DNA of 32,000 bases from Deinococcus sp. LM3. GTDB taxonomy: Bacteria; Deinococcota; Deinococci; Deinococcales; Deinococcaceae. The translations under genes and the position numbers were made by a program. The stretch spans positions 75,437 to 107,436 of the forward strand of contig NZ_MUFV01000005.1 in assembly GCF_002017875.1 (NCBI RefSeq), in the 5' to 3' direction. How positions within the stretch are numbered: position 1 is the first letter of the stretch; every line of letters starts with the position of its first letter. Positions 4,407 through 21,334 of this stretch are shown piece after piece. The notes below the pieces were generated by a model. The model made no database searches. It was given only the letters and a program-made list of their open reading frames with translations, and had not been told where the DNA came from.

Positions 4407-4431
4407 GTTGACAATCTCCAAATTTGTCAAC
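4407..4431. promoter_or_regulatory. inverted repeat GTTGACAA-N9-TTGTCAAC, possible operator or origin element
   Basis: Perfect 8-bp arms in the non-coding region upstream of the putative replication gene. Confidence 0.35.
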
Positions 4432-5045: not shown

Positions 5046-5073
5046 GGCTGCGGGATCCGTGGTGTGCAGGAGG

Positions 5074-5430
5074 GGTGCGGTTCAGGTGTGCTGATGGGTT
5101 TCCAAGTCAAGCGATTCCGGAAGAGCAGTCTCCGCGGGCCCTTCCCGCTGACTTTCGGGAAGCCGGTCAGTGTCAGTCTGCGGAACTTCTCGTAGCCACT
5201 GCATCTGTTTGCGATTCGCGCGGTCGTGGCAGCTCATCAGATACGATCGTGACCGCGTTTGTCAGTACATGATGCCTCACATGAGTGCCCCAAACAGCGC
5301 AATCCGAAGTCGTGTTTTTCGACAAAGATGCACTTTTTTGGGCTCTTTTTCTGCGAATTCCGGTGAAAAATCGCGAAAACGCTGTTCTGGCGGGTCTTCT
5401 AGGGCGGCCTTACAGGAAGGCCAGGAAGGG
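5074..5430. repeat. tandem-spaced direct repeat, copy 2
   Basis: Same sequence as copy 1 with scattered substitutions; offset 385 bp at both ends. Confidence 0.9.
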
Positions 5431-5508: not shown

Positions 5509-5771
5509 ATTTATCTCCTATGGACGGTCAGTTCGCTGCTGAGCCGGCACCCATCCACCGGACTGGAAACGCCTCACCTGAGATGGGCTCCCTTCCGTCC
5601 CAGTCAGGTTCGCAGTCCGCTCCACGTCCGAATTGCAGGTCCCACGGGGCCGGCTACAGCGTAAGCAGGATCTCAGCAATCCGTACCCCCATCAGGGGTT
5701 TTCCCGAACGAGTGGCATGAGCACTTCACCGGGTGCCGGTCCTCTCTCACCACATTGCCTCCAGATCTTCC

Positions 5772-5802
5772 ATTCGCTGTTCGCGATTCGCGAACAGCGA
5801 AT
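5772..5802. promoter_or_regulatory. perfect 31-bp palindromic operator immediately upstream of a TATACT -10 and the ATG
   Basis: ATTCGCTGTTCGCGA-T-TCGCGAACAGCGAAT (15-bp perfect arms). TATACT at 5802-5807, ATG at 5814, suggesting a leaderless or near-leaderless transcript. Confidence 0.75.
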
Positions 5803-5813
5803 ATACTGAGACC

Positions 5814-6323
5814 ATGCTCAAACCCCAGGATCTTCTGATTCTCCTCAAGCTCCTTCAGTCGGGGTATACCTCGCACGCGCAGCTTTCAGGAAGCCTGGGC
5901 ATGAGCTCGTCCGAAGTGCACGCCGGACTCAAACGACTCAAGCAGTCCCGACTCGTCAAGAGCGACGTCTCCCCCATCCGGTCAGCCGTCCGTGAGGTTC
6001 TCCGGTACGGTGTCCCCTATTTCCTCCCCGCCGTGCGGGGCGAACTCACCCGCGGCATGCCGACCGCCTACGCCGCGCCACCACTGAACGCCCATATCGC
6101 TCAGGGCAGCGACCCGCCCCCCATCTGGCCCGACCCTGAAGGCACCGTCCGTGGTCAAGCCCTGGCCCCCCTCTACCGCTCGGTGCCCTTCGCCGCCCGT
6201 CAGGACCCAGCACTCTACGAATGGCTCGCGCTGGTCGATGCCCTGCGGAGCGGAAGCACCCGCGAACGCCAGTTGGCCGGCAAGCTTCTGGACGAGCGCC
6301 TGCAGATCCCGGTCGTGTCATGA
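5814..6323 (+). CDS. winged-helix/MarR-like HTH protein, probable antitoxin/regulator partner of the downstream nucleotidyltransferase
   Basis: MLKPQDLLILLKLLQSGYTSHAQLSGSLGMSSSEVHAGLKRLKQSRLVKSD... HTH pattern. The start downstream of the palindrome is preferred over the ORF-track start at 5733. The stop overlaps the next ATG (ATGA). Confidence 0.7.
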   Translation: MLKPQDLLILLKLLQSGYTSHAQLSGSLGMSSSEVHAGLKRLKQSRLVKSDVSPIRSAVREVLRYGVPYFLPAVRGELTRGMPTAYAAPPLNAHIAQGSDPPPIWPDPEGTVRGQALAPLYRSVPFAARQDPALYEWLALVDALRSGSTRERQLAGKLLDERLQIPVVS

Positions 6324-7375: not shown

Positions 7376-8047
7376 ATGATGGCAGGCATGTCAGCCAGAA
7401 TGTCTCCTGTCGTGATCAGCGCCGTCATGAAGAAGGGCGGTGCCGGGAAAACCTCGACCATCGTGCCCCTGGCCAGTTTCGCTGCGCAGTCCGGGGCCCG
7501 CGTGGCCCTGATCGACATGGACAGCACGCCGAGCGCCCATCAGTGGTTCACGGCGGCTGAACTGGGCAGCGAGACGTTCGCCTGTGACCGCATCACGGCG
7601 GACGAGCTCGATCCGCTGCTGCGGGATATCCGGGAGAGCAGCGCCTTTGATTTCGTGTTCATCGACACGCCCCCCGGGGATAAGCACGGCATCGTGCAGG
7701 CCATGAGTGAGAGTGACCTGGTGCTGATGCCCCTGCACATCGGGTCAGGGGACGTACCCCAGTTGGTCGAGACGTACCACCTGATGCGCCTGCCACTGCG
7801 GGCCAATCCGAAGTTGCATCACCTGATCGTCGTGAACCACGCAGGGACGATGCCAGCGGTGACGCGCGACACGATCAGTGCCATCCAGACTGAACTGCCG
7901 GACGCACAGATCGCGGCCGCCACCATTCCGTACAGCAAGCAGTACGCCCTGGCAAAAGGCAACCGCCCGGACCGCGTGAAGTGGTGGCATTACGACAAGT
8001 TGTGGAAGGAGATTCAGACCCTGCTGCCGCAGGAGGTGCCCGCATGA
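7376..8047 (+). CDS. parA: ParA family partition ATPase
   Basis: Deviant Walker A KKGGAGKTS, FVFIDTPPGDK, LIVVNHAG. The true start may be the internal ATG at about 7400 (MSPVVISAVMKKGGAGKTS). Confidence 0.85.
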   Translation: MMAGMSARMSPVVISAVMKKGGAGKTSTIVPLASFAAQSGARVALIDMDSTPSAHQWFTAAELGSETFACDRITADELDPLLRDIRESSAFDFVFIDTPPGDKHGIVQAMSESDLVLMPLHIGSGDVPQLVETYHLMRLPLRANPKLHHLIVVNHAGTMPAVTRDTISAIQTELPDAQIAAATIPYSKQYALAKGNRPDRVKWWHYDKLWKEIQTLLPQEVPA

Positions 8048-8394
8048 GCAGCATCCGCAAGATGATGGGGCAGGCCGAACCGCAACCGGAAACCCCTCCG
8101 CTGCGCACGGCGCCCCAGACACCAGAGCTGAAAGAACAGCCCACACCACCCATCACTGAAGGGCCGCGCCGGTTGAACCTGCCGCCAGTCGCCCCGCCCG
8201 AAGAACGCAAGCCGCTGAGCACCCGCGTGAAACCCAGCTTGAAAAAGGCGCTGGAGGACTACACCAAAGAGATCCGGGACGCGGGGTTCAACGTCACGCA
8301 GGAGATGGTACTGGACGTGCTTCTACGTGAGTTGCGGGACAGTGAGGGGTTACGAGAGAAGGTGGCTGCGGTCCTCGTCGCTGAGCAGAAGTGA
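8044..8394 (+). CDS. small ribbon-helix-helix-like centromere-binding partner of ParA
   Basis: ATGA overlap with the parA stop. C-terminal KPLSTRVKPSLKKALEDYTKEIRDAGFNVTQEMVLDVLLREL fits an RHH fold. Start set at 8044, not the ORF-track 7981. Confidence 0.65.
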   Translation: MSSIRKMMGQAEPQPETPPLRTAPQTPELKEQPTPPITEGPRRLNLPPVAPPEERKPLSTRVKPSLKKALEDYTKEIRDAGFNVTQEMVLDVLLRELRDSEGLREKVAAVLVAEQK

Positions 8395-8490: not shown

Positions 8491-8739
8491 CTACCCGTTT
8501 CCGCGTAACAGATCTTGCATGGATAGCTTAAGTGCAGTAGTCAGTCGCAGGAGAGTTGTGAACTGCGGGTCGTACTGCGCACTTTCGATTTTGCTGATGT
8601 GGCTTCGCGAGAGGTTGGCACGGGCGGCAAGTTCTTCCTGACTGTATCCAGAGTTTTGACGTGCCTGCCGGATCTGAGCCGCCATCCACTCCAACGCCTG
8701 TTGTTCATGGGCTTGGTAGGTTCGAGGTGTGCGGGCCAT
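8491..8739 (-). CDS. XRE/Cro-family HTH transcriptional regulator (C-protein-like)
   Basis: EWMAAQIRQARQNSGYSQEELAARANLSRSHISKIESAQYDPQFTTLLRLTTALKLSMQDLL is a classic XRE HTH. Confidence 0.9.
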   Translation of the reverse strand: MARTPRTYQAHEQQALEWMAAQIRQARQNSGYSQEELAARANLSRSHISKIESAQYDPQFTTLLRLTTALKLSMQDLLRGNG

Positions 8740-8858: not shown

Positions 8859-9827
8859 GTGAAGTATTTTTGCGGCTACACCCCATGGGACTTCCCAATC
8901 GCGCAACTTGACCCCTACGCTCACATGCTCGTCTCGCCGACCACCTATTCGCCAACGTACAGGTACGACTTCCACCCGCCACAGGAGGTCATGCTCGATA
9001 GTGGCGCCTTCCATCACGGTCGGCGTAACACGCATCGTCACCGCCTGCGCACCTTGCATGATCAACTCAAAATTGCCGAACAGTACCCAGGGAGCACGGT
9101 CACTCTTGCCCACAGTGATGTGCTCTTGCGGCCAGAGGTTGATCCACGCCGGAGTATTCATGAAACCCTCGTGAATGCCGAGTGGTTCATGCGGCAGGAC
9201 CTGCCGAGTGGGTACCGACGAATGACTGTCGCTCAAGCACGCACTCCTGACGAGATGTACCTCGTGGTTTCTCAACTGGCTCAATTTGAGCCTGAATTGA
9301 TCGGTATAGGTGGTCTCGCGAATCTCCACCGTACCCACCGCAAACTCCTTCCATTTATGCTCGAAGGAGCGGTGGAGGCCGCCGGCGACCTTCCCCTCCA
9401 CGCACTCGGCGTCACTGCACAGCACATTCTCCAACGGCTACGCATCAACAACATCTACAGTTGCGACTCTGCCACTGCCATCTGGTGCGCCATCTATGGC
9501 AGCGTTGTCTATGCCCGTCCATACCGCCGTTACCGTCTGATCAGCGAGAAATCCAGCAGGCCCGAATCTCCACAGGAAACAGGCTACTACAGCAGTCTGA
9601 CTCGCCCTCTCGCCTGCACATGTCCAGTGTGCCGAACAGTTCCAGAAGAGTTACTAGGCAGTGACTCGCGCGCTAAATACGCCCGTTACATTCACAACTA
9701 CTATCACATCAAGCTTGAGATCGAGGGAGAGGGAGAATGGCAGGCAGTTTACTCATCGGCCGAATACCAGTCCGTTATGACGACCTTTCTCTCCTCCAGG
9801 AGCTCATCGAACAGCACCCAGGCATAA
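8859..9827 (+). CDS. compact TGT-like (DpdA-superfamily) protein
   Basis: MLDSGAF, IGIGGLA, LPLHALGV, IYSCDSATAI, and zinc-site-like CTCPVC followed by YARYIHNYYH, matching the TGT CxCxxC...H pattern. Confidence 0.7.
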   Translation: MKYFCGYTPWDFPIAQLDPYAHMLVSPTTYSPTYRYDFHPPQEVMLDSGAFHHGRRNTHRHRLRTLHDQLKIAEQYPGSTVTLAHSDVLLRPEVDPRRSIHETLVNAEWFMRQDLPSGYRRMTVAQARTPDEMYLVVSQLAQFEPELIGIGGLANLHRTHRKLLPFMLEGAVEAAGDLPLHALGVTAQHILQRLRINNIYSCDSATAIWCAIYGSVVYARPYRRYRLISEKSSRPESPQETGYYSSLTRPLACTCPVCRTVPEELLGSDSRAKYARYIHNYYHIKLEIEGEGEWQAVYSSAEYQSVMTTFLSSRSSSNSTQA

Positions 9828-10525
9828 CGTTTAAAGCACTCAAGGAGACTTTAACGCCACACTGGACGTACTACCTGTCAAGCTCGGCCAGTCTGCTCAA
9901 AGAAACCCTGAGCTTTGGCACAACACTGGGCCTCTTCGCTTCAAGCGCTGAACGGTCATGGGATGACCGCACCTTCAGCACTCCCTATGAATCGAAGCAT
10001 CTTCGTGCCACGATTCTTCATCTCCTGTCCGCGCAATCAGACACCTCCCAGCGGGCCTTTCGTGGAGTTCATGACGAATTGATCGACCAGGGGCATGTCC
10101 ACACGGATATTTCCAGCATCCTCGAATGCATGGAGACTGGGCCCTATGGTCAGGTCTTCCGCTGGAACGATACGAAAGTCAACTTCTGGAGTCAGTTCAT
10201 GCACGACCTGGGTCTGGTCATCCGGCTTCCACCGGAACGGGTGGTCCTGAGTCCGACCAGCTCTCTCCTTCAAGAACTGCTGCCTGCACAGGGCGGCCCC
10301 GTTCGCCCGTTGTTGGAAACGTGGCACCGCGATTATTACGCCGTCTTCACGCGTCTAGGCGAGGTTCACGAAGGACTTGCACGGGCTCTCCTGCGACTGG
10401 AACAACAAGGACACATGACATTCACGTACGCGAGTGACGCCGTCGGCAGTGTGCTGTTATGCGGCCGTCGCATCAGTCACTGGACTCACGCCGCCGCCGG
10501 AGGCACCCATGTGGATTCCCTTTGA
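9737..10525 (+). CDS. hypothetical protein, DpdG-position candidate
   Basis: 262-aa ORF between a TGT-like gene and a DpdH-like ATPase. Overlaps the previous ORF by 91 nt, so the true start may be further downstream. Assignment is by context only. Confidence 0.5.
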   Translation: MAGSLLIGRIPVRYDDLSLLQELIEQHPGITFKALKETLTPHWTYYLSSSASLLKETLSFGTTLGLFASSAERSWDDRTFSTPYESKHLRATILHLLSAQSDTSQRAFRGVHDELIDQGHVHTDISSILECMETGPYGQVFRWNDTKVNFWSQFMHDLGLVIRLPPERVVLSPTSSLLQELLPAQGGPVRPLLETWHRDYYAVFTRLGEVHEGLARALLRLEQQGHMTFTYASDAVGSVLLCGRRISHWTHAAAGGTHVDSL

Positions 10526-13418
10526 TCCTGCCGACGTTGCTCAGGTCTTCACCACCGAATCCCGTCAGAAGCACGAGCGAATCTTCACGCTAACACACAC
10601 AAGCATGAACCGAATTCTCGTCTCGCACAACCGCGTCGGTCTTTCCAATGGCCAGTTTGTCGGTGAGCATGCAGTACTCGATCTGATTCAACAGTCTGCT
10701 CCGCTGGATAGCAATCGCGTCTGGTTCATCGTGGGAGAAACAGGCAGTGGCAAGTCTGAACTCTGCCAGTGGTTGGAGTACCAGTTGCGTGAACGGCACC
10801 TACCCCTGCACATCTCCAGGCGGCAAGCAAATCTCACCGGCATTCTCGATGTGCTGCACACCCATTTACCGTCCGGCCTTCAGGGGCAGACGACTGACCT
10901 GCCGCAGGACGTGTTGACGGATCACCTTCGCCTGCACCTCATGCTACGCGCCCACCGGGAAGGCCGCGGCCTGGGGTACGTCGAGCAGTTGCTGCCCTTT
11001 CTCCCTGACCTCGCCCGGCGGCTCTATCAACCGCTGGCTTCGTTTGAATTGCCACCCCACCTGCCTCCTGCACCCGCAGATGTTCCTTTCACGGCCTGGT
11101 TGTTCAGCGCCGTTCGCGAAGTCTTGGGTCTCCAGTCACTCGAACCCACCCTGCGTGCACTGGCCGAACATACCGCCCAACTCGGGAAACGTCCGGTCCT
11201 TTTGCTGGAAGACATCACCACTCTCGGCTTCTTACGTGACGATCTCCTCGACTACATTTTTGATCTCTCCGCTCCAGGGTTCGACGCGGTCATCGGGCTG
11301 ACCAGCGGTTTTGAAGATACCCACCTTCACCGCGACGGAGACCTTTCAGAGATGGCGTATGTCCGTGACCGTCTCAGTGCCCGGTTCCAGTTATCGCACA
11401 AGAGTGGAGAAACGTTTTTCCTGAACCAACCTCAAGATCTCCATGATCTGGTCCGGCGCTACCTGGGCTGTCTGCCGGCTCAGTCGGGCGGATCTTCGCC
11501 CGCGTTTTCAGGCCTGTACCCGTTTTCACCCACCATGCTCGACCGTCTATACACACATCTGGTCGAAAGTGGTAACCCGCGTCAAACGCCACGGAATCTA
11601 CTCGACGCTGTTATCAAACCTTCCCTGTGTCTGAATGAACCACCCCACGTCACTCTGTTCCGGGCACACCCTTATTTGCGCACGCCCAGCGTTACCTTTT
11701 ACCATCAAGACATTCCACCGGAACTCCAAGGACTGCTGTACTGGCATGGTGAGGTCCGGGACGGAAGTGTTCACGTTCCGGACGATGTGGCGCAGGCATT
11801 CGGTTATGATTCTGTTCCTCCGGTTCCCTGTTTTCCCAATCCCACAGGATCAACGTGGCTCTTCGGAAAGACGGCGGATGATCCAACAGATCTGTGGAAA
11901 GAAGCCATCCGTGAACTGCAAGCCTGGCAATCTGCGGGTGCTCCCTTTCCCAAACGCCAGTATCTCAAGCGCGGGATTGAACGACTTCTCCGGGCCCTGC
12001 TGGATCCGCGCCCTATCCAGCATCCCCGTCTGAATGCGCTCAGCGCAGATCCTTTAGAGTACACGCGCGGAGGCGATCACCTCCCTATTTACTTACCCGA
12101 GAGCGGTGACGTGCGTCCTGAGCATTGGCCGAGCCTGCACTTCCCCCGCACTCTTCCGCCCCAACTGCTTGAAGAATGCCTCACCTATGCGTTCTCCGCC
12201 AATCGCCATGTAGAATGCTTTGCCGATCTGGGACATACGCGACAGGTTCTCGAAGATGTTGTCTCCGATTTCCGGAGTGACGTGCGCGATCAGATCGGAC
12301 GTCTCACCGGACAATCATGGTCGAGGATGGTCTTTGGTCTCTGGTGGCTCTGTCAACATGTCTGCCAGGGCCATCCCCTGCAGATGAACGGCGGGGATGG
12401 CAAACGCGCCCTTTTGCAGTATGATCTCGCCCCAAAAGAACTGCGAACGGCCTGGTCGGATGAGCGTCGCCACCGCGTGTTACACCGCACTCACCAGGAA
12501 CTTCGGGCGAATCGTGATCACTACCGGGGCTTATTTGTGAGCCTCTTCCATCACAGAGACGACCTGATGGACCCCGTGCTCTATGAACAGGAGTGCCGAC
12601 AGTTCGATCCCAGTCTGTTCATGGATACCCTGGCCACGCTTTCACTCTCACGCCTCTCGGCGGCGCCCTACCGGCAACGGGGCAGTAAGCTCTCGTTGAC
12701 GCAACTCCTCCAACCCGCCGTGGAATACGCCGCAGCCCTCAAGGCATACGTCCTTCAAGACGAAGACCGTCTCCAGTGGACGGCCGTGGAACGCAGCCTT
12801 GAACACGCCATTCAACAGGCAGATGAATTGGACCTAGCCTGCAGACGTATTGAGCGTCTGGCTCATCAGGCCGGATGGACCATCACTGCCCCGCCGACCA
12901 GTCACACGTGGCGGTCCGGCGAGTGGGCAGGTGTCCTGCGTCAGTCCCAGCAGGCCAGTCGCGACTTCAAGAACCATCCTCCGATTGTGCAGATCACGGT
13001 GGCGCGCACGTGGCGGGAACGCCTGGAACAAATAGAACCGATCCAGTGGATGAACGCTGTTAAGGTGTTCCGAGACAGCGCTGAACGCATTCACCAGGAG
13101 AGGCACCCCGTTGAACAACTGCCCACACGACAGACGCATCATTCGAGTGACGTTCACCTGAATGATCTGGAAGATCTCGCCAGTACGCTGGCGGCGGCCG
13201 CGGACGCCGCCGACACCTTGCCACAGCATGTTGCCGAGCAGACGGCCCGTTCGATCCGTCGCCTGCAGGCGACGCAGACTCAGAGCATTGAAGCCGTCCT
13301 GGGCCGTCATGGCATTCACGCACCCGTGCAGATGGCGCGGCAGTCACGGGAGGCCAGTCTGGTTCTTCTGAGTGACCTGCTGGAATGCATGGTGGACCTC
13401 ATGGACTGCCCACCGTGA
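10509..13418 (+). CDS. large P-loop ATPase, DpdH-like
   Basis: VWFIVGETGSGKSELCQWLEYQL (Walker A), RPVLLLEDITTLGF (Walker B-like), about 969 aa from the ATG at 10509 that overlaps the upstream stop. DpdH naming is by size and context. Confidence 0.7.
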   Translation: MWIPFDPADVAQVFTTESRQKHERIFTLTHTSMNRILVSHNRVGLSNGQFVGEHAVLDLIQQSAPLDSNRVWFIVGETGSGKSELCQWLEYQLRERHLPLHISRRQANLTGILDVLHTHLPSGLQGQTTDLPQDVLTDHLRLHLMLRAHREGRGLGYVEQLLPFLPDLARRLYQPLASFELPPHLPPAPADVPFTAWLFSAVREVLGLQSLEPTLRALAEHTAQLGKRPVLLLEDITTLGFLRDDLLDYIFDLSAPGFDAVIGLTSGFEDTHLHRDGDLSEMAYVRDRLSARFQLSHKSGETFFLNQPQDLHDLVRRYLGCLPAQSGGSSPAFSGLYPFSPTMLDRLYTHLVESGNPRQTPRNLLDAVIKPSLCLNEPPHVTLFRAHPYLRTPSVTFYHQDIPPELQGLLYWHGEVRDGSVHVPDDVAQAFGYDSVPPVPCFPNPTGSTWLFGKTADDPTDLWKEAIRELQAWQSAGAPFPKRQYLKRGIERLLRALLDPRPIQHPRLNALSADPLEYTRGGDHLPIYLPESGDVRPEHWPSLHFPRTLPPQLLEECLTYAFSANRHVECFADLGHTRQVLEDVVSDFRSDVRDQIGRLTGQSWSRMVFGLWWLCQHVCQGHPLQMNGGDGKRALLQYDLAPKELRTAWSDERRHRVLHRTHQELRANRDHYRGLFVSLFHHRDDLMDPVLYEQECRQFDPSLFMDTLATLSLSRLSAAPYRQRGSKLSLTQLLQPAVEYAAALKAYVLQDEDRLQWTAVERSLEHAIQQADELDLACRRIERLAHQAGWTITAPPTSHTWRSGEWAGVLRQSQQASRDFKNHPPIVQITVARTWRERLEQIEPIQWMNAVKVFRDSAERIHQERHPVEQLPTRQTHHSSDVHLNDLEDLASTLAAAADAADTLPQHVAEQTARSIRRLQATQTQSIEAVLGRHGIHAPVQMARQSREASLVLLSDLLECMVDLMDCPP

Positions 13419-13459
13419 GCAACACCAGGGATGGCTCAGTACGTCGAAGCTAACATTGC

Positions 13460-13486
13460 GAGGTTCCGGCAAAGCGCCGGAACCTC
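13460..13486. terminator. putative bidirectional terminator hairpin
   Basis: GAGGTTCCGGC-AAAGC-GCCGGAACCTC, perfect 11-bp stem, between convergent genes. No T-tract. Confidence 0.5.
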
Positions 13487-13559
13487 TCCATTCCCGCTCC
13501 AACGTACTTTTTCTGCTGCGCGCTCCGCGCGGTTTATCTACAAGATAAACGCAGTGTAC

Positions 13560-15545
13560 TTAATTCAGGAGGCGTTCCATGGGCCGCTCCAGGTTGTCCC
13601 GTCGTTCCCGGGCAGCCTCATAGCGGTCTCGTTTAACGAGGAGGCTTTCATCGCCGGCAAGGATACGGGCCTGCACGTCCTGGAGTGCCCGGAGGTACAT
13701 GTTGATGTTATGAACGGCGCGGCCCATGTTCGCTTCGTTGCCACCGTTGTAGGGACGGCCACTCGGGTCGCGTAATGTTCCACCCTGTGCCCGGGTGTCC
13801 CACCCTTCGGCGCGCATGGCAGAGCACGCAGGACAGTGGCAGGGCGGTAACTCATCGCTTCCAGGAACGTTCTCAACAATCCGGTACTTTTTGAGGAGGT
13901 TGGGGTCTTCCGGGACGTACTGAAGGAAGGATCCGGCCGTGAAGGCAGACATATACATGCTGGAACCGTCAAAGGAGTCAACACCCAGATGTGTGAGCGT
14001 GGCAGCCCATTTGATACTGGAAACCCCCAGGACGTGAATATACAGATCCGGCACCTGGGCCCGGTACTGTAAGGCGTCTTCAACGCACCGGTAAACAAAG
14101 TACGGATCACGACTTGATTTCAGGGCGAGACTGCCCAGGGCGATGTGCCGGTACCCGAGATCCAGGTAATGCTCCATCATTTCGTGCCGTTGCTCGAAGG
14201 ACCCGTGGGTGACGGCCATGAGACGGTGCGCACCGGCGAGGGGCTTCATGGCTCTTGCGAACTGATAGGAGATTTCAATTTTTTCGCGCGCAACCTGCGG
14301 ACTGTCGAGACCGTCAAGGATCATCATATCCGGGGAGACGATAATGTCACGTCCTTCCCGGGCCCCTGCATCCTCAAACAGTTTCATGGTGCCCTCTGGC
14401 GTCAGGGGTCCGTTGCGTTTTTTCAGGATGGGGTATGGCTCTGCCTTGTAACTCCAGGCGCCGCAATCGTAGATATTGCCCTCATCAGTTTGTGGCAAGG
14501 GATCACTGTTAGGGTTGTGATACGCCAGAGAGGTCAAGTACCCCCTGGGATCCGTTTCAATAAAGTTCCAGATGCGTTCCATCTTGGGGGTTGGCAACGG
14601 CGCCCCTGCGTGATCCTGTGTCAGTTTGAGCTTGTCACGGTTGTTAATCACCACTGTGAATCGTGCCCGCGGAGGCACCGCGAGTTCATGCTGGGCTTTC
14701 GGGTAAAACGCTTCACTGCTCAAGTTCAGAGGGTTGAAGCCCAGTCCGGTGCGGTGAATGCTGGGACCTGTGGTGACCGGCATGGGAGGCACTGAAGCTT
14801 CTACCTCAGCCTCTGACATGAGCGTTGGTGCCGTGCGGGCCGCCTGCCAGGTTTCCAGATAGGTGATGGCGCTCTGAGGATCGGCGTGCCAATCGTGCAG
14901 CACTTCTGGATGTTCTGCGACGGCCCGCGCGAGTTGATGAAACAAGAAGCCTTTCAGGCCAACCATACCGTATCCGAAGCGACGTGCATCCTTATTGACC
15001 AGAGGGAGAACAGCCTGCTTGGCGGCATGCTCGGGAAGAATGGCGGCACTCCCGCCACTGGCCAGAAAAATGAAGCTTTGATCTGGACGACTCTGCAGTG
15101 GGAGAAGGGCCGACTTCAGATAATTCTCGCCGAGCAGGAAAATGACAATATCATAAGACTTTATTCTTGCATTCAGGGCCTCGTGGATGCCCAGCTGCTT
15201 ACTCCAGTCTAAGACTTCCCGGCTTTTTAATTCGTTGAAAGACGTTTCGTAGGGGGCAATAAATTTATACTGATCGATTAAGCCATAACCGGCTGAGATG
15301 ATTTCCAGCCGACTGACAACACCTTTGATCTTCGAGAGAATATCAAAAGCTCGGGAGACCTGTTGGTGCTGCGCACCCGTGTATAAGCGCTTGGCTGAAG
15401 TTCGGTACTCCGCCAACTCTTGCTCACGAGCCCGAAGGTGATCTCCTCCCTTGCGGAAATCCTCTATCACAAGTTGATTTGGCGGTTTGTATAGCTTTGC
15501 GCCCGTACAAGAACTGATGACTAACAAGCTTGGGTACTTGGGCAT
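13560..15545 (-). CDS. dpdA: DpdA-like protein: N-terminal DUF6884/YaaA-like domain fused to C-terminal TGT-like domain
   Basis: N-term SLLVISSCTGAKLY...ISAGYGLIDQYKFIAPYETSF. C-term YRHIALGSLALK, DLYIHVLGVSS, LGVDSFDGSSM, CHCPACS...RAVHNINMY. Directly follows queC. Confidence 0.75.
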   Translation of the reverse strand: MPKYPSLLVISSCTGAKLYKPPNQLVIEDFRKGGDHLRAREQELAEYRTSAKRLYTGAQHQQVSRAFDILSKIKGVVSRLEIISAGYGLIDQYKFIAPYETSFNELKSREVLDWSKQLGIHEALNARIKSYDIVIFLLGENYLKSALLPLQSRPDQSFIFLASGGSAAILPEHAAKQAVLPLVNKDARRFGYGMVGLKGFLFHQLARAVAEHPEVLHDWHADPQSAITYLETWQAARTAPTLMSEAEVEASVPPMPVTTGPSIHRTGLGFNPLNLSSEAFYPKAQHELAVPPRARFTVVINNRDKLKLTQDHAGAPLPTPKMERIWNFIETDPRGYLTSLAYHNPNSDPLPQTDEGNIYDCGAWSYKAEPYPILKKRNGPLTPEGTMKLFEDAGAREGRDIIVSPDMMILDGLDSPQVAREKIEISYQFARAMKPLAGAHRLMAVTHGSFEQRHEMMEHYLDLGYRHIALGSLALKSSRDPYFVYRCVEDALQYRAQVPDLYIHVLGVSSIKWAATLTHLGVDSFDGSSMYMSAFTAGSFLQYVPEDPNLLKKYRIVENVPGSDELPPCHCPACSAMRAEGWDTRAQGGTLRDPSGRPYNGGNEANMGRAVHNINMYLRALQDVQARILAGDESLLVKRDRYEAARERRDNLERPMERLLN

Positions 15546-15547
15546 AC

Positions 15548-16252
15548 TTACTCTTGTATACCGTCCTGCGCCTGGGCGTAGCGGGTGGCGAGGTCCGGGC
15601 GGCCCGCCTCGATCAGCGCCTTATCGCGGATGCGGCATGAATCGCACACCCCGCACGGCTCCTCGCCCCCCTGGTAGCAACTCCAGGTCACGTCGATCGG
15701 CACGCCCACCGCCAGCGCCTCGCGCACGATGTCCGCCTTCGTCATCTCCGCCAGCGGCGCTGTCAGTACCGCCCCGCGCCCCTCCAGGCCCGCCTTCGTC
15801 GCCAGGTCCGCCAGCGTCTGGTACGCCGAGAGATACTCCGGCCGGCAGTCCGGGTACCCGCTGTAATCCACCGCGTTGATCCCCAGGAACACCCGCTCCG
15901 CGTCGATCGCCTCGGCCAGACTCAGACCCACGGCAATAAAGACCGTGTTGCGCCCCGGCACGTACGTCGGCGGAATCACGCCGTCCTCCGTCCCGTCCGT
16001 CGGCACGGCCATCGACTCGTCCGTCAGGGCACTCCCCCCGAACGACCCGATATTGATGTCGATCACCCGGTGCACGGCTCCGAAGTGCGCCGCGACCGTC
16101 GCTGCCCGCTCCAGTTCCACCGTGTGCCGCTGCCCGTACCGGAACGACAACGCCGTACACGCATACCCGTCCCGCGTCGCCATGCCCAGCACCGTGCTCG
16201 AATCCAGCCCGCCCGACAGCAGCACCACTGCCCTCTTATTCTGATTTGTCAT
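15548..16252 (-). CDS. queC: 7-cyano-7-deazaguanine (preQ0) synthase QueC
   Basis: [17 protein letters not shown]-loop, [35 protein letters not shown] zinc site. Confidence 0.96.
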
Positions 16253-16377
16253 GTTGATTCTCCGAGGTTAATAGTGAATGGAAGGCTCTGAAGGCCTCTC
16301 CCTTCGGGAGAGGCCTGTTCTACACCTGAACAACTAAGTCCTGCCTGAGAGATCACTCTCACTGCACCAACAGCCTT

Positions 16378-17070
16378 TCAGTACCCAAGTTCCGCGTTCC
16401 CACCGAGGGGGATGAGGCGCTTGTCACTGTGCGCGTCGAGGTCGTCGGCGCGGTACAGCTTGTGCATCTGGTACCCGGCCCGCAGGCGCGGGTTCTCCTT
16501 CACCGCCTGCGTGATGCCGTTCAGCACAGTCAGATCCCGCTCGCGGGCCCGGCTCCACTCCGGGTGCAGCCAGATCACCGCCCCGTCCGGCAGGCCGGTC
16601 AGGGTGTCCAGGCCCGCCTGAATATCACCGGGTTCGTGGACGATGATCTTCACCTCGTCCGCGAGTACCACGACTTCCGGCAGCGGGGGCTGCCCGAACG
16701 GTTTGGGCGACAGCGTCACCCAGTCCAGTTCACCCCGCAGCGGTGCGATCCCGCTCGTCTCGATGTGCACCCGGCGGCCCAGCGCGTGCAGGGCGTCCGT
16801 CAGGGGCGCGAGGTCGAACAGGATCGGCTCGCCCCCCGTGACCACCACCACCGCGCCCTCTGGACTCTCGGCCCGCACCACATCGGCCAGTTCATCGGCA
16901 CTCATGAGGGTCACGCCGTCCGGGCGGTAGTCGCGGTGCCACGTGCCGGCACTGTCGCACCAGGGGCAGGCCTGCGGGCAGCCGTACAGGCGGATGAAGT
17001 ACGCCGCGCGGCCCAGGTGAACCCCCTCGCCCTGCCAGGTGTAGAACCGCTCGTACACCGGGTACTTCAT
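16378..17070 (-). CDS. queE: 7-carboxy-7-deazaguanine synthase QueE (radical SAM)
   Basis: YERFYTWQGEGVHLGRAAYFIRLYGCPQACPWCDSAGTWH, VVVTGGEP. Confidence 0.95.
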   Translation of the reverse strand: MKYPVYERFYTWQGEGVHLGRAAYFIRLYGCPQACPWCDSAGTWHRDYRPDGVTLMSADELADVVRAESPEGAVVVVTGGEPILFDLAPLTDALHALGRRVHIETSGIAPLRGELDWVTLSPKPFGQPPLPEVVVLADEVKIIVHEPGDIQAGLDTLTGLPDGAVIWLHPEWSRARERDLTVLNGITQAVKENPRLRAGYQMHKLYRADDLDAHSDKRLIPLGGNAELGY

Positions 17071-17081
17071 TGTTGCTCCGC

Positions 17082-17107
17082 TGGAATGGTTCGCCAGAAC
17101 CGTTCCA
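17082..17107. promoter_or_regulatory. hairpin/operator-like inverted repeat just upstream of the queE start
   Basis: TGGAATGGTTC-GCCA-GAACCGTTCCA, 11-bp arms with one mismatch, ending 11 nt before the queE ATG on the minus strand. Confidence 0.5.
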
Positions 17108-17134
17108 GTCGAGCGGATGTGAGAAGGAGCCCAG

Positions 17135-17201
17135 CGGATTCCGGGCGTGGAATTTGGACCTCGATGGGGTGCCGAGGTGCAAATGGAACAGACGGAATCC
17201 G
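17135..17201. repeat. 67-bp imperfect palindromic element between queD and queE
   Basis: CGGATTCCG...TTTGGACCTCG-N9-CGAGGTGCAAA...CGGAATCCG. The outer ends match those of the 135-bp structured repeat. Confidence 0.6.
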
Positions 17202-17211
17202 GTTCACGCCC

Positions 17212-17622
17212 TCACTCCCAGTACTCGCAGGAGCTGTCGGGTGTCTCCCAGAGCGTCACGTGCAGGCGCAGGTCTGCGCCGTCGTCCCCGTCGGGCAGGT
17301 CGGCGCGCACGCGCTTCATGGTGTGGCGGTGAATGTACGCGGCGACGACCTCGGCGGTCGTGTCGTCCCCGAGTTCCGGGATGTCGTTCAGGTATGCGTG
17401 GTCCAGGCCGCCGGCGTCCACGTCCTTCTTCGCCCATTTGAGGGTCTTGAAGTCCGCGACCATGATGGCCCGCTTGACGTGCGCACTCGGGCGGAGTTTC
17501 TCACTGGTGAGTTCCAGCCGGACGCGGTACGTGTGCCCGTGCAGTCTCCCGCACGGCCCGTCGTAGCCGGTGATCACATGTGCCGAATCGAACGTGAACT
17601 CCGAACTCAGTTTCCAAGGCAT
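17212..17622 (-). CDS. queD: 6-carboxytetrahydropterin synthase QueD
   Basis: SSEFTFDSAHVITGYDGPCGRLHGHTYRVRLEL with HGH metal motif, ADFKTLK, DHAYLND. Confidence 0.95.
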   Translation of the reverse strand: MPWKLSSEFTFDSAHVITGYDGPCGRLHGHTYRVRLELTSEKLRPSAHVKRAIMVADFKTLKWAKKDVDAGGLDHAYLNDIPELGDDTTAEVVAAYIHRHTMKRVRADLPDGDDGADLRLHVTLWETPDSSCEYWE

Positions 17623-18257
17623 CAGCGGACTCCTGCGGGTGCGGTGGTGAGGGCGGGCTCCTGCGGCTCACTGACCTGGGTTCGCACCCAGCGAACCAGG
17701 GGAATAAGCAGAAGGCTGATCAGCATCTTCAGGATGATCTGCCCGAGCATCAGGTTCAGCAGGGGCGCGCCGGTCCCGGCAAAGGCCAGCGTGATGAACA
17801 CGATGGTATCCAGGGTGGTGCTCACGGCGTTCGACGCGATGACCTGCACGGTGACCCCACGGTGACGCAGACGCTCGAAGATCAGGGCGTCGAGGGCCGT
17901 GCTGATCAGGTACGCGGCCAGGCTCGCCAGGACCACGCGGACCGTGGAACCGAAGACCACCTGATAGGCGTCGTCCTGGAAGAATCCGGGTTTCGGAAGG
18001 GCATTGACGAGTAGACCGTAGGCGGCGAGCAGCGCGTTGGCGGCGAAACCGCCCCACAGGACCGCCTTGGCGGCCGTCCAGCCCCCCGCGGTGTGGATGG
18101 CGTCCCTAAGGGTGAAGGTCAGGGAGTACAGGAAGATCGCGCCGGGAAAGACCAGGGAGCCGAGCTGCACGAGGCGACCGGCGGTGACGTTACTGACGAG
18201 TTCCGCGCCGATGTAGACGGAGATCAGGATGGTCAGCAGGGTGGTGCGTTGAGTCAT
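17622..18257 (-). CDS. yhhQ: queuosine precursor transporter (YhhQ/QueT-like, VUT family)
   Basis: Hydrophobic multi-TM protein (LISVYIGAELVSNVTAGRLV...FPGAIFLYSLTFTLRDAIHTAGG), one-base overlap with queD. Confidence 0.85.
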   Translation of the reverse strand: MTQRTTLLTILISVYIGAELVSNVTAGRLVQLGSLVFPGAIFLYSLTFTLRDAIHTAGGWTAAKAVLWGGFAANALLAAYGLLVNALPKPGFFQDDAYQVVFGSTVRVVLASLAAYLISTALDALIFERLRHRGVTVQVIASNAVSTTLDTIVFITLAFAGTGAPLLNLMLGQIILKMLISLLLIPLVRWVRTQVSEPQEPALTTAPAGVR

Positions 18258-18507
18258 GGGAAACCTTTCGGGTGAAGCGACTCCAGCGCGCGTGGGACGA
18301 TCCGGCCCGAATCGCCACGGGCCCCTCCAGCAGGAAGGGGAGTGACGAGAGGGCGGCGGATCCCAGGGGCCGGGAAGCCGGAGAGATCAGAGCAGCGTGA
18401 CGACGCGGCCGTGATGTTGATGTGCACACGTCAGTCGGGTGCCTGCCACCGTTCAACGGTGTGCAGGTCAGTCGGGGCTGACGTCGGGCGGAGCGTTCGT
18501 GGTCGCT

Positions 18508-18659
18508 CTAGCCGGTGGGTCCCTGAGGGGGGCAGCGCCCGGGCGCGAAACCGTCTCGTTTCGTGGCGGGGCGAGGTCCTGCGGGACCGTCAGGTGGGGC
18601 GCCGTGCGCCTCCCACCTGGAAGGAGGGGAGATCCAGGATACGCCGGAGTACTTGTTCA
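18508..18659 (-). CDS. possible short upstream ORF in the leader between the TGT-like gene and yhhQ
   Basis: AAGGAGCTCCC-ATG then MNKYSGVSWISPPSRWEAHGAPPDGPAGPRPATKRDGFAPGRCPPQGPTG-stop. Confidence 0.3.
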
Positions 18660-18779
18660 TGGGAGCTCCTTGGGACCTGTGCGGCATTACAGGCCCGGGG
18701 GGTGGGCGCAGTCTGCGCCTGGCAGAGTCTTGCACATCCCTTCTGCCTGCGGGTAAGAACCCCCGGCAGGGTGAGGGGC

Positions 18780-19673
18780 TCACCGCTGCAAGGTGCGGGT
18801 GGTGAGCGTGCTGAAGCGGGCAGTGGGGAGTGGGAGGGACGCGCCGATGGCCGCCGCGAGGTTGCACAGGGCCAGGTGAACGCGTTCGTGCGGGGTGAGG
18901 TGGGCGTGCCGGACCTGCGGGGCCGAGTAGAGACGGCCGTCCGCGGCGTACTTCACGTAGGAACTGGAATCCACGCTGTCCACGCCGAGCCGCGAGACCC
19001 GCCCGACGTGGTCCGGGTGGCCGATCCCGAAGGCGTGGATGGGCAGGTCACCAGCTGCGGCGCGGACAGCCCGGATCACGTCGTCCACCATGTCTGGTTG
19101 GGACATGCGTAGGACGAGCCCCCCGATGGCGACTCCTTCGAATCCAGCCTCCCGGTACTCCTGCGCGAGCTCCGCGGCGGCCTGCGCGTCCCAGCCCTGC
19201 ACGACCCCGTACAGGGGCAGGTCGGTGCGGCGGCGGTTGTGCAGGGCCCACAGCGCGTTGGCGCGCGTCAGGGCGTGATAGCGCCGGGCGTCGCGGGTGG
19301 GCAGACCGGGGGGAATGAGCAGGTCCAGGGTGAAGCCGACGTCCGCGACGCGTTCCTGCAGTTCCAGGACGCTGCTGGGTGTTATGCGCCGACCCTGGCA
19401 GTCGATCACGCCGAGTCCCGCGCGGGTGCGGGTCACGGTGGCGGCCGTGAAGACACTGGCGAACCCGCCGGAGTCCACGAGCAACGGCACGCTCAGGTCC
19501 GGCGCTTCCCGCGCGTCTTGCAGGAAGAACGCGCTGACCATGACCGCGGGTGCGAGCCGGGGCAGGTAGGGGCGGATCAGGTCGTCGAGGGGGTACTTCT
19601 CGCCGAAGGTCGTGACGGGCACGAACGCGGGGAAGTGCAGGGGGCCTTTGCGAGTGTTCAGGGTGCGGGTCAT
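18780..19673 (-). CDS. TGT-like/DpdA-superfamily protein lacking the CxCxxC zinc motif
   Basis: PLLVDSGGF, LPLYGVVQGWDAQA, GFEGVAIGGLVL, LPIHAFGIGHPDHVGRVSRLGVDSVDSSSYV. No CxCxxC cluster. Confidence 0.75.
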   Translation of the reverse strand: MTRTLNTRKGPLHFPAFVPVTTFGEKYPLDDLIRPYLPRLAPAVMVSAFFLQDAREAPDLSVPLLVDSGGFASVFTAATVTRTRAGLGVIDCQGRRITPSSVLELQERVADVGFTLDLLIPPGLPTRDARRYHALTRANALWALHNRRRTDLPLYGVVQGWDAQAAAELAQEYREAGFEGVAIGGLVLRMSQPDMVDDVIRAVRAAAGDLPIHAFGIGHPDHVGRVSRLGVDSVDSSSYVKYAADGRLYSAPQVRHAHLTPHERVHLALCNLAAAIGASLPLPTARFSTLTTRTLQR

Positions 19674-20078
19674 GCGTTCATCCAGAGGTGCTCGAAGGAC
19701 CAGTCGGGGGACGGGTCGTGGTTCAGGGCGGTGAGGTCGGCGAGCGCACGGCTACCCTGACGCGGTCATTGCTCGTTCAGGCCAAAGAACGCCTCGCTGA
19801 TCCTCATAGACTGGTCCTGTTCACGGATGGTTTTCTGTCTTCTGACATCTTTCAGTTTTAAGCCGTATGCTGGCGAGTGCCGTCCCAGACGAATAAAATC
19901 CGTTCCATTTCTCTTTCCAGCTCAAAAAGCCGCACCCAGCCGACACATTTCATCCTGACCTGACCAGCCAGTGCACCCCAGTCGGGCCAAGAGGTCTCCT
20001 CTTGGTCCGACGCTGTTTGGTCAAGGTGCTCAACATGGCAGAGGAAGAAGCAGGCCACACTCAGGCAGAGATAGCGTA

Positions 20079-20213
20079 ATACGGACTCCGATTGAATGGG
20101 CTGCAAAGCCCGTTCAATCCGAGCGAAGCGAGTGGGAGCAAAACGGGTTCCGGACGTGGAGCCGGCAATCCGGTGAAGTCCCGGATTGTCGGCGAAACAA
20201 ACGGAATCCGTAT
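20079..20213 (-). repeat. structured dispersed repeat, copy B (inverted relative to copy A)
   Basis: ATACGGACTCCGATTGAATGGGCTGCAAAGCCC...GAGCGAAGCGAG...CAATCCGGTGAAGTCCCGGATTGTCGGCGAAACAAACGGAATCCGTAT. The outermost 12 bp are inverted repeats with one mismatch. Confidence 0.85.
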
Positions 20214-20362
20214 CATTCGTCGTTGGGCTACCGAACACCGGATGAGTGGGCCAAGGAGGCCAGTGGCCGGCCTGCCGTCCCCATGTGCGGGCAGGACACC
20301 GCACATGCGGCCGTCATCCCGACCACTGGGTGAAAAAGGGAAGACGACTGTGTACGCTCGTT

Positions 20363-20410
20363 CTTGAATCGAGTCTCTACTCGAAAGTGTCCAAGCTTTG
20401 GGGTCAGGCC
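20363..20410. repeat. 48-bp direct repeat, copy 1
   Basis: CTTGAATCGAGTCTCTACTCGAAAGTGTCCAAGCTTTGGGGTCAGGCC, matches 20694..20741. Confidence 0.75.
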
Positions 20411-20693
20411 ATACCCCTGAATAGAGGTCATTCGGAAATTGAGTGACAGGGGGCCGCACAGATTGGCGGCCCCCTCTGCCGATGCGGCTGAGCGATGCCC
20501 AATGGGCCGTCCTTGCACTTCTCATTCCACCCACCACCACCCGCGGTCGGCCACGCCCGTTCTGATCGCGAGGTCCTCGAAGGTATCCTCTGGGTTCTTC
20601 GCACGGGAGCGCAATGGGCTGCCCTGCCAAACCCCACCCAAGACCACCTTCCACGACCGGTTCCAGGAGTGGGTGCTGATGATGAACCCTGCT

Positions 20694-20741
20694 CTTGAGC
20701 CGGGTCTCTACTCGAAACTGTCCAAACTTTGGGGCCAGCCC
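20694..20741. repeat. 48-bp direct repeat, copy 2
   Basis: CTTGAGCCGGGTCTCTACTCGAAACTGTCCAAACTTTGGGGCCAGCCC. Confidence 0.75.
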
Positions 20742-20743
20742 AA

Positions 20744-21334
20744 TTAGACAGGTGGATGTAAAAGTCGCCGGGCCCGATCCATGGCTTGAACCAAAGGGTC
20801 TTGGTCACCGTGGCGCCGAAGCCACGGACCGGTTGGTCCGTGCGCGCCTTTCAATGCCTGAAGCCACAGAGTGCCGAGATAGTGCACAAGGACATGATCC
20901 AGATCCTCTGAAGGCGGTGCGGCGCTTATGAGCGAAGCAGATAGGCCTGAAGACTGATCCACCGGAGGCATAAATTCTTGCTCTGCGTCGTGCAGTAGAG
21001 TAAGACCTTGGTCTACAGCAGTTCCACGTTTCTCTGGAACTTCACCATGAGGCGGCAAGTGCACTTCCTGGACCCCCTGGGCGCTACGGTCTTCATACAG
21101 TCGGCTCAGCAGTTTGAGCGCGTCACGCACATCTACAGGTTTGGTACTGCACTGCACCACGGTCCAGGGCCCCAGTTGCCGTTCCTCAACTCCCGCCGCC
21201 AAGACGAAGGTCAGGCCCAGAGTGACTTCAGGGTAGGCCACAGGCAACGTCCCCACGTCGGCGTGTGTGAAGTTGTACTCCGCTTCAGGCAGGGAGGCCA
21301 TCTGCAACCGGCCAGCAAGTTCAAGAGCGTTCAT
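20744..21334 (-). CDS. hypothetical protein, operon-terminal
   Basis: 196-aa ORF whose ATG overlaps the stop of the upstream helicase gene. Confidence 0.65.
   Translation of the reverse strand: MNALELAGRLQMASLPEAEYNFTHADVGTLPVAYPEVTLGLTFVLAAGVEERQLGPWTVVQCSTKPVDVRDALKLLSRLYEDRSAQGVQEVHLPPHGEVPEKRGTAVDQGLTLLHDAEQEFMPPVDQSSGLSASLISAAPPSEDLDHVLVHYLGTLWLQALKGAHGPTGPWLRRHGDQDPLVQAMDRARRLLHPPV

Follow-up and report, generated by a model that had tools for sequence, protein, structure and literature searches.

We analyzed a 32-kb stretch of Deinococcus DNA (hereafter the window; Deinococcus sp. LM3, 61% GC) in which three genes of the tRNA-guanine transglycosylase (TGT) superfamily lie within 11 kb and adjoin queC, queE, queD and yhhQ. 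Their products are referred to as TGT322 (322 aa), the fusion (661 aa) and TGT297 (297 aa). A sequence-only reading of the same DNA had pointed out three TGT-like open reading frames (ORFs) of these lengths; they exist at the coordinates it gave, and they contain the motifs it quoted: CTCPVC...H in the first, CHCPAC...H in the second, and DSGGF and VVQG without CxCxxC in the third. The 661-aa protein is indeed a DUF6884-TGT fusion, and the single adjoining pathway for 7-cyano-7-deazaguanine (preQ0) is real. The features of the island are as follows:

8491–8739, minus strand: helix-turn-helix (HTH) regulator, XRE-type, divergent from the TGT322 operon (Pfam HTH_3, 2e-15)
8859–9827, plus strand: TGT322, small zinc-containing TGT/DpdA-like transglycosylase, “type-1” second TGT (TGT fold by AlphaFold2 and Foldseek)
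9737–10525, plus strand: DpdG' (DpdG-like), overlapping the TGT322 end (NCBIfam DpdG, 3.2e-9)
10509–13418, plus strand: DpdH' (DpdH-like P-loop nucleoside triphosphatase, NTPase; NCBIfam DpdH, 6.9e-11; AAA_22)
13560–15545, minus strand: DpdC-DpdA fusion, 661 aa (Pfam DUF6884 and TGT; PADLOC DpdC and DpdA)
15548–16252, minus strand: QueC (Pfam QueC, 1e-70)
16378–17070, minus strand: QueE, radical SAM (Pfam Radical_SAM, 2.6e-9; place in the queD-queE-queC block)
17212–17622, minus strand: QueD (Pfam PTPS, 6.6e-29)
17622–18257, minus strand: YhhQ-type queuosine-precursor transporter (Pfam Vut_1, 1.6e-33)
18508–18660, minus strand: conserved 50-aa small ORF upstream of yhhQ (AAGGAG ribosome-binding site)
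18780–19673, minus strand: TGT297, zinc-less TGT, “type-2” helicase-associated second TGT (Pfam TGT, 9.4e-24; AlphaFold2 and Foldseek)
19673–19741, minus strand: DEAD/HhH helicase remnant, last 23 codons (tblastn with the D. sonorensis helicase)
19742–20743, no strand: insertion sequence (IS) debris in the helicase's place (transposase-like ORF fragments; two 50-nt direct repeats)
20744–21334, minus strand: 196-aa protein after the UvrD-like gene, no family match (homologue in D. taeanensis)
21331–23394, minus strand: UvrD/GajB-like superfamily 1 helicase (Pfam UvrD_C, 8.7e-24; PADLOC NERD+UvrD, 2.3e-44)
23405–24205, minus strand: DpdK-like phospholipase D (PLD) nuclease (NCBIfam DpdK, 1.3e-12)
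24202–29538, minus strand: DpdJ-like YprA-family helicase, 1778 aa (NCBIfam DpdJ, 4.8e-111; PADLOC DpdJ, 6.3e-134)
29576–30280, minus strand: DpdI-like protein (NCBIfam DpdI, 3e-14)
30277–32000, minus strand: DpdH, C-terminal part (NCBIfam DpdH, 2.4e-46, model positions 458–1011)

The genes from DpdH through the fusion are all on the minus strand. The in-frame translation of DpdH stays open to the window end, where the gene is cut.

Dpd systems combine 7-deazaguanine DNA modification with restriction. Since DUF6884 is the DpdC family and the gene set is of the Dpd type, the window reads as a divergent, mosaic, DpdB-less Dpd-type island. The components by which such a system is recognized, namely a TGT-family gene, dpdE–K-type helicases and nucleases, and a preQ0 supply, are represented by the TGT genes, by DpdH, DpdI, DpdJ and DpdK homologues and by queC/D/E with yhhQ; in the syntenic D. 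taeanensis plasmid, dpdE, dpdF and dpdH are named as such by PGAP. All Dpd matches in the window fall under the NCBIfam equivalog cut-offs, and the system is therefore a divergent one. DpdB was found neither among the 20 window ORFs scanned nor by jackhmmer from the PCC 7113 DpdB over the window, and the PGAP annotation of the complete D. taeanensis plasmid contains none. We hold the gene identities in the island with high confidence. Based on the analyses below, we consider it probable that the island is a two-TGT, DpdB-less Dpd variant in which TGT297 is an orphan from a second module, and that it is not a designed three-enzyme system.

Fold and families of the three transglycosylases

Three such TGT matches within 11 kb cannot be the product of chance. 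Profile-profile comparison of the three families (hhalign) matched TGT322 to the other two with 98.9% and 99.4% probability, with the catalytic Asp in register. The residues aligned in TGT322, TGT297 and the fusion, respectively, are: general acid, D47/D67/D360; base-binding Asp, D87/D117/D406; Gln or His, Q126/Q159/H447; and nucleophile, D203/D235/D526. Their counterparts in Salmonella DpdA are D95, D130, H181 and D256 (PMC10164549). The full catalytic Asp set is kept in all three proteins and is invariant inside each family; TGT322, the fusion and TGT297 are all TGT-superfamily proteins with intact catalytic residues. The structural zinc site, CxCxxC...H, occurs in TGT322 and the fusion and is missing from TGT297. 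None of the three is a bacterial DpdA (bDpdA) equivalog, with scores of 24.1, 43.8 and 57.9 bits against the NCBIfam DpdA model NF041059 (curated cut-off 200 bits). A phage origin found no backing: a tblastn search of 50,697 phage records returned no match to TGT322 or TGT297, and PHROG matches were weak.

In the fusion, Pfam detects DUF6884 (9.5e-10) and TGT (2.9e-8), the former at residues 46–153 with 39.2 bits, over the gathering threshold of 30 bits, and PADLOC recovers DpdC (3.4e-6). By sequence, the only match in the PDB is to DpdA 7UI4, at 0.46. Thirty fusion sequences share an invariant S12-C-T-G-x-K17, D360, D406 and D526, together with the zinc ligands C569/C571/C574/H612 (C569-H-C571-P-A-C574...H612). 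Homologues (45 from a database search and 224 relatives in a scan of one genome per species) come mainly from cyanobacteria, Bacillota and Deinococcota; PGAP names the cyanobacterial orthologues “DpdA”, and the D. sonorensis fusion is 67% identical (tblastn). [quoted passage not shown]

TGT322 is the weakest of the three by sequence. It has no Pfam match and no PDB match by sequence; its DpdA matches are weak but specific (NCBIfam, 1.5e-5; PADLOC, 1.9e-6). Its AlphaFold2 model (pLDDT 79, pTM 0.80) nonetheless retrieves, as the top 50 PDB entries in Foldseek, only TGT, archaeosine TGT (ArcTGT) or QTRT1 structures (probability 1.0, TM ~0.63). The zinc motif reads C253-T-C255-P-V-C258, followed by H279/H283. 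In an alignment built from 11 database relatives and a wider check over 24 relatives, with identity down to 24%, D47, D87, D203 and C253/C255/C258/H279 are invariant. The lineage is rare: a word-indexed search of 5.8 billion proteins returned 12 members, and a hidden Markov model (HMM) scan of 1.84 billion cluster representatives returned 26 at E<=1e-30.

The neighbours of TGT322 are conserved with it. In all Deinococcus loci of this type (the D. taeanensis plasmid and loci L009, L010, L015 and L016), the TGT322 gene is followed by overlapping DpdG-like and DpdH-like genes, with the fusion adjoining, and D. taeanensis, L009 and L010 also have the same small HTH gene upstream of their TGT322 homologue. 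A diverged form of the module stands after the fusion in Paenibacillus, Bacillus and relatives, where the gene order is fusion, 262-aa protein, small DpdA-like TGT, 258-aa protein, 1063-aa DpdH-like protein, QueC/D/E; the 258-aa protein is the Paenibacillus homologue of the DpdG' kept after TGT322 in Deinococcus. TGT322 thus heads a conserved, overlapping three-gene operon that is found with the fusion in Deinococcus and, as a diverged version, in Bacillota. The DpdH' ORF opens at 10434, and the start called in the sister strain 6YEL10 (969 aa) makes 10509 the likely one here. Its Walker A (G-x-TGSGKSE) and Walker B (hhhh[ED]D) motifs are kept in 19/19 homologues from Deinococcus and Bacillota. 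BLASTP against D. taeanensis DpdG and DpdH matched DpdH' in the Walker A region only and gave nothing significant for DpdG'; DpdG' and DpdH' are distant paralogues of the canonical copies and not recent duplicates.

TGT297 has D67 in the sequence DSGGF, Q159 in VVQG, and no CxCxxC. Its AlphaFold2 model (pLDDT 89.5, pTM 0.88) is matched at the top of the PDB list by TGT, ArcTGT and QTRT1 (probability 1.0, TM 0.70–0.78), and its best PDB match by sequence is an archaeosine TGT (2e-13). The models of the first and third proteins therefore both match TGT folds, an outcome on which the sequence-only reading had made its proposal depend. The TGT297 family comprises >1000 proteins of ~300 aa from cyanobacteria, Chloroflexota, Planctomycetota, Acidobacteriota and Deinococcus. 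The zinc motif is absent from 29/29 aligned members, and D67, D117, Q159 and D235 are invariant; the family is therefore a zinc-less branch of the TGT superfamily. Loss of the motif by frameshift in the window copy was considered and ruled out: the three downstream frames hold no CxCxxC remnant, and 29/29 relatives end alike.

In nine fetched loci, a DEAD/Helicase_C/HhH helicase gene (~770–815 aa) has a TGT297-family gene abutting or overlapping its 3' end. This pairing sits in another kind of fusion-containing island, together with a second helicase, a ~700-aa protein, a DUF87/HerA protein, a NurA-like protein and a UvrD protein with PD-(D/E)XK; examples are the D. sonorensis chromosome, Singulisphaera, a JGI contig, and Nostoc and Picosynechococcus plasmids. 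Window TGT297 is 86% identical to the D. sonorensis copy, which follows an intact helicase.

Some details of these loci deserve mention in their own right. The helicase-type system on the D. sonorensis chromosome (L011) includes a 250-aa protein at 15892–16644 with a weak match to an ADP-ribosyltransferase exoenzyme (1.8e-4) and a 704-aa neighbour of strikingly low GC (0.42). On the Nostoc sp. MS1 plasmid (L005, 8506–12798), a TGT297-family protein follows a DnaB helicase, not a DEAD/HhH helicase, and its gene lies 1 kb from one for a 274-aa PF23859 “DpdA”, among DNA methylases; the context is phage-like and shows one more kind of pairing of TGT paralogues.

Partners of the fusion in other genomes

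We surveyed 78 distinct loci encoding a full-length fusion, using HMMs of both second-TGT families together with the jackhmmer search for DpdB. The loci were distributed as follows:

DpdB only: 18 loci
TGT322-type second TGT: 18 loci
TGT297-type second TGT: 8 loci
Both second-TGT types: 1 locus (the window)
Neither, full 10-kb flanks: 10 loci
Neither, short flanks: 23 loci

DpdB and a second TGT were found together in 0/45 classified loci (18 with DpdB only against 27 with a second TGT; Fisher p = 1.2e-7, shared ancestry being ignored). In the sampled fusion loci the two are mutually exclusive, and the two-TGT layout recurs in DpdB-less fusion-type Dpd systems (27/45 classified loci). A neighbour-joining tree built from the fusions intermingles the three types of partner and requires at least seven switches. 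Within the Deinococcus TGT322 type, for example, sits the helicase type of D. sonorensis, and in cyanobacteria loci with DpdB alternate with helicase-type loci. The two second-TGT kinds occur together only in the window and, outside the 78 loci, in the sister strain 6YEL10 (97–100% identical), which shares the arrangement; the earlier impression that the combination is unusual was thus well founded. Some of the loci with neither partner carry genes of the helicase-type system, and in these the TGT probably lies >10 kb away, as in Singulisphaera.

These data suggest that many fusion-based Dpd systems dispense with DpdB and use instead a second catalytic TGT tied to a DEAD/HhH helicase or to a DpdH-like NTPase. 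That the NTPase-coupled second TGT replaces DpdB is a proposal in which we have moderate confidence.

TGT297 and the mosaic structure of the island

The DEAD/HhH helicase that precedes TGT297 in the nine other loci is not intact in the window. Only aa 747–769 of the 769-aa D. sonorensis helicase find a match, at 19741–19673 with 83% identity (tblastn), leaving 23 codons immediately upstream of TGT297, and the stop codon of this remnant overlaps the TGT297 start (ATGA). In the adjacent debris, 50-nt direct repeats at 20362–20411 and 20693–20742 are 86% identical. The sister strain 6YEL10 has the same arrangement and the same helicase remnant, with 99.4% identity over the 543 nt upstream of TGT297.

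In the closest related islands the gene is decayed or missing. On the D. taeanensis plasmid NZ_CP083460.1, TGT297 is a three-piece, frameshifted C-terminal remnant beside yhhQ, and it is missing from L009 and L015 (a D. hopiensis metagenome-assembled genome), even though the L015 YhhQ is 97% identical. A nearly invariant Pro of the family is replaced by Leu (L188) in the window copy. Compared with 6YEL10, TGT297 shows 10 non-synonymous and 12 synonymous changes (dN/dS 0.31, against 0–0.10 for yhhQ, queC and queE; the counts are small). Because the helicase is deleted down to 23 codons, IS debris occupies its place and the gene is decayed or absent in close islands, we conclude with high confidence that TGT297 is an orphan in the window and not a conserved member of the system.

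On the same D. taeanensis plasmid (L002), the TGT297 remnant and queE (in two frames) are disrupted and unannotated, at 5532–5811 and 7649–8337, while the Dpd genes look intact; the preQ0 block of that plasmid appears to be decaying.

Base composition divides the region 8400–32000 into three blocks. GC content at third codon positions (GC3) is 0.62 for the HTH gene, TGT322, DpdG', DpdH' and the fusion, 0.85–0.89 for queC/E/D, yhhQ and TGT297 (0.89 for TGT297 itself), and 0.56–0.77 for the restriction block. TGT297 shares the GC3 of the que genes and so travels with this host-adapted block. Identity to 6YEL10 is likewise uneven, 99.7–100% for TGT322, DpdG', DpdH' and the fusion and 95–99% for the que/yhhQ/TGT297 block, which together with the compositional blocks indicates recent recombination between islands. 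We take the three-paralogue feature to be largely a product of island mosaicism.

Proposed mechanism, alternatives and known systems

In Salmonella, DpdA exchanges G for preQ0 in DNA only with ATP hydrolysis by DpdB, and DpdC then converts 2'-deoxy-preQ0 (dPreQ0) to dADG (PMC10164549). The DpdA domain of the fusion would insert preQ0 into DNA and its DpdC domain would hydrate it to dADG. The ATP-dependent step in DpdB-less systems would come from the second TGT and its NTPase, here TGT322 with DpdG' and DpdH', elsewhere the helicase with a TGT297-family protein. Two roles are conceivable for the second TGT: insertion of preQ0 by the TGT itself, once its NTPase has opened the DNA, or attachment of the NTPase to the fusion. 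As no catalytic or zinc residue is missing from TGT322, base exchange by TGT322 itself is probable, DpdH' having prepared the DNA; TGT322 could serve other sites, or be the primary inserter with the fusion mainly finishing the product to dADG. TGT297 would be what remained after displacement of a helicase-type module, and it would have moved together with the host-adapted que/yhhQ block; it may keep activity, though without its motor.

Several points weigh against this account. Whichever of the three partners it has, the fusion retains its full catalytic set, which leaves more than one TGT eligible as the inserter of the base, and a catalytic TGT of its own is hard to account for in an NTPase helper. 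DpdB was detected by jackhmmer from one seed (PCC 7113) only, and a very divergent DpdB could escape; the Fisher test takes no account of shared ancestry, and the neighbour-joining tree is crude. Neither DpdB nor a second TGT turned up in ten fusion loci that had complete 10-kb flanks, and a TGT lying >10 kb away in a helicase-type system, as in Singulisphaera, accounts for some of these only. Finally, TGT297 is intact in two strains, with dN/dS <1 (22 substitutions only) and a codon composition like that of the que genes, so it may still be used.

This last point also favours the division of labour that the sequence-only reading had put forward, in which all three TGTs would be active DNA transglycosylases, each with its own motif, strand or 7-deazaguanine base. 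The general acid, base-binding Asp and nucleophile are kept in all three, TGT297 is a full-length ORF in both strains with the dN/dS given above and a codon composition matching the neighbouring que genes, and a single strand carries all genes from DpdH to the fusion, making read-through transcription possible. Against these stand the deletion of the obligate-looking helicase partner of TGT297, its reduction to a stub or its absence in the nearest islands, which otherwise keep the whole system, and the occurrence of both second-TGT kinds in only 1/45 classified fusion loci. With TGT297 traced to a helicase-coupled module whose helicase is deleted, we find a three-enzyme division unlikely. The other suggestion made at the outset, one tRNA enzyme and two DNA enzymes, fares worse. 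TGT297 is the most plausible candidate for a TGT acting in queuosine- or archaeosine-type tRNA modification: its best family match is the general tgt superfamily model (79 bits), its best PDB match by sequence is an archaeosine TGT, and it adjoins yhhQ and the que genes. Its scores are nevertheless far under the cut-offs for Tgt (TIGR00430, 57.8 against 306.75 bits) and ArcTGT (TIGR00432, 66.9 against 350 bits), the zinc subdomain and C-terminal tRNA-binding domains are missing, and in the nine fetched loci, on plasmids and chromosomes, its relatives abut helicases in defence islands. TGT322 and the fusion match neither TIGR00430 nor TIGR00432. A tRNA role for any of the three is thus very hard to credit.

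Two further explanations concern what a second TGT does. It could be an NTPase-driven sensor or effector of the restriction arm and not a writer, one that flips out G at target sites and tells G from preQ0 or dADG, or one that excises G, so that on unmodified foreign DNA damage such as covalent adducts or abasic sites is triggered or created for the accompanying nucleases. Both second-TGT kinds are translationally coupled to motors (the DEAD/HhH helicase or the BrxC-like DpdH'), canonical Dpd systems have DpdG and DpdH in their restriction operon, the type-2 systems are rich in nucleases (NurA/HerA, PD-(D/E)XK), and, as in the cluster of PCC 7113, the fusion alone could write. In a preQ0-producing cell, however, a TGT with intact catalytic residues should modify its target and not damage it; the mutual exclusion with DpdB speaks for the modification arm, DpdB being a modification factor; and the Paenibacillus type-1 module has queC/D/E as direct neighbours. 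We judge this explanation improbable. The eukaryotic TGT, a heterodimer of two paralogues (cited in PMC10164549), provides the model for the other: like QTRT2, the second TGT would pair with the TGT domain of the fusion without being catalytic itself and would only recruit the NTPase, in keeping with the view that fusions in DpdB-less loci always come with a second TGT. Even relatives of only 24% identity, however, retain the catalytic triad and, in the case of TGT322, the zinc ligands without change, which is not expected of a pure scaffold and makes this explanation quite improbable. Taken together, these considerations lead us to retain the two-TGT, DpdB-less variant with an orphan TGT297 as the probable reading.

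With the Salmonella Montevideo Dpd system (DpdA/B/C for modification and DpdD–K for restriction; Thiaville 2016; Gedara 2023, PMC10164549), the window shares an enzyme of the TGT family, a domain of the DpdC family and a source of preQ0, as well as DpdH/I/J/K homologues, with DpdE and DpdF in the D. taeanensis relative; D95, D130 and D256 of DpdA have counterparts in all three window TGTs. The window differs in that it lacks DpdB, has DpdC and DpdA fused, contains extra TGT paralogues with NTPase partners of their own, and adds the UvrD-like helicase and the 196-aa protein. Its scores are also far from the NCBIfam cut-offs (DpdJ, 372 against 800 bits; the TGTs, 24, 44 and 58 against 200). The dpd cluster of Microcoleus/Allocoleopsis PCC 7113 (Hutinet et al. 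2017, PMC5699537) has a DpdC-DpdA fusion, a DpdJ-like helicase, a PLD nuclease and QueD, as here, but it combines a DndB-like DpdB with one TGT only, whereas the window has three TGTs and no DpdB. The helicase-type fusion system (D. sonorensis, Singulisphaera, Nostoc NIES-3756 and Picosynechococcus PCC 73109) resembles the window in its fusion (67% identical) and its TGT297 orthologue (86%); it differs in the intact DEAD/HhH helicase before the TGT297-family gene, often with a second helicase after it, and in its HerA/DUF87 and NurA-like proteins and its UvrD with PD-(D/E)XK, none of which occurs in the window, where only the 23-codon helicase stub is found.

The published classification of DpdA proteins distinguishes bDpdA from the subfamilies DpdA1–DpdA4 of phages or viruses (PMC10516641). 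The phage enzymes are likewise small DNA-guanine transglycosylases described without a DpdB partner (PMC6884629, PMC10516641), from which TGT322 and TGT297 differ as separate lineages in cellular defence islands. The BREX-related capture (BRC) systems with a TGT and the Dpd-like BRIGADE systems of haloarchaea (PMC12839542; bioRxiv 10.1101/2025.09.15.676423) come closest to the present proposal: they similarly combine a TGT with BrxC-like or DpdH-like ATPases and no DpdB, and the BRC authors likewise propose that another NTPase substitutes for DpdB. Their other components differ (PglZ, GNAT and HerA in BRC; two YprA helicases in BRIGADE), and in what we read of the two papers we found no description of a DpdC-DpdA fusion or of paired TGT paralogues. 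In the literature searched, whose incomplete coverage makes this weak evidence of novelty, we found no paired or triple TGT paralogues in dpd islands, no helicase-coupled zinc-less TGT, no TGT/DpdG'/DpdH' operon, no dpd in Deinococcus and no experiments on dPreQ0, dADG or restriction in any Deinococcus.

Only one Dpd system has been reconstituted, and there DpdA needs the DpdB ATPase for a reason that is not known. If our reading is right, there are two DNA-associated TGT lineages not described in the searched literature, one of them zinc-less and with >1000 members, and the fusion loci offer natural experiments on the role of the ATP-dependent step. The rules for finding 7-deazaguanine DNA systems would have to be broadened, since searches for dpdA plus dpdB (as in the GATOR-GC survey) would miss these. 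It is the two-TGT, DpdB-less design, more than the three-paralogue feature, that is worth following.

Several smaller observations concern the remainder of the island. The D. taeanensis YhhQ homologue is annotated as a queuosine precursor transporter. The 50-aa ORF lies in the 520-bp spacer between TGT297 and yhhQ; its strong ribosome-binding site, start and first ~25 codons (MN[K/E]Y[S/Y]G..W[I/M].PP......APPD) are kept in five Deinococcus islands, unlike the remaining spacer, and it may encode a leader peptide or a small protein. The spacer has no Rfam match, and neither Rfam (over the whole window and, at a relaxed threshold, over this spacer) nor a tRNA scan returned anything, a preQ1 riboswitch included. 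The 196-aa protein after the UvrD-like gene has a 46% identical D. taeanensis homologue in the corresponding place. In the window one ORF of 1778 aa encodes DpdJ, whereas in D. taeanensis (L003, 4932–10249) it is annotated as two genes, for a DEAD/DEAH helicase and a hypothetical protein.

A ParA gene at 7376–8047 suggests that the replicon carrying the island is a plasmid or megaplasmid. TGT322 is 100% identical to an “unclassified Deinococcus” entry, and the island DNA matches Deinococcus plasmids only. An archaeal origin, raised by weak HVO_A0114 and winged-HTH matches, was ruled out: proteins of the window have Deinococcus entries at 100% and 97% identity, and its DNA matches Deinococcus plasmids. 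At 4037–5170, ~1.1 kb without an ORF of >=80 aa has the lowest GC of the window (0.51), and no tRNA or Rfam family was found there. Upstream of the Dpd island, at 5733–6323 on the plus strand, lies a gene for a 196-aa winged-helix protein that matches the PADLOC candidate PDC-M21A (2.5e-42), which suggests a further defence-related gene.

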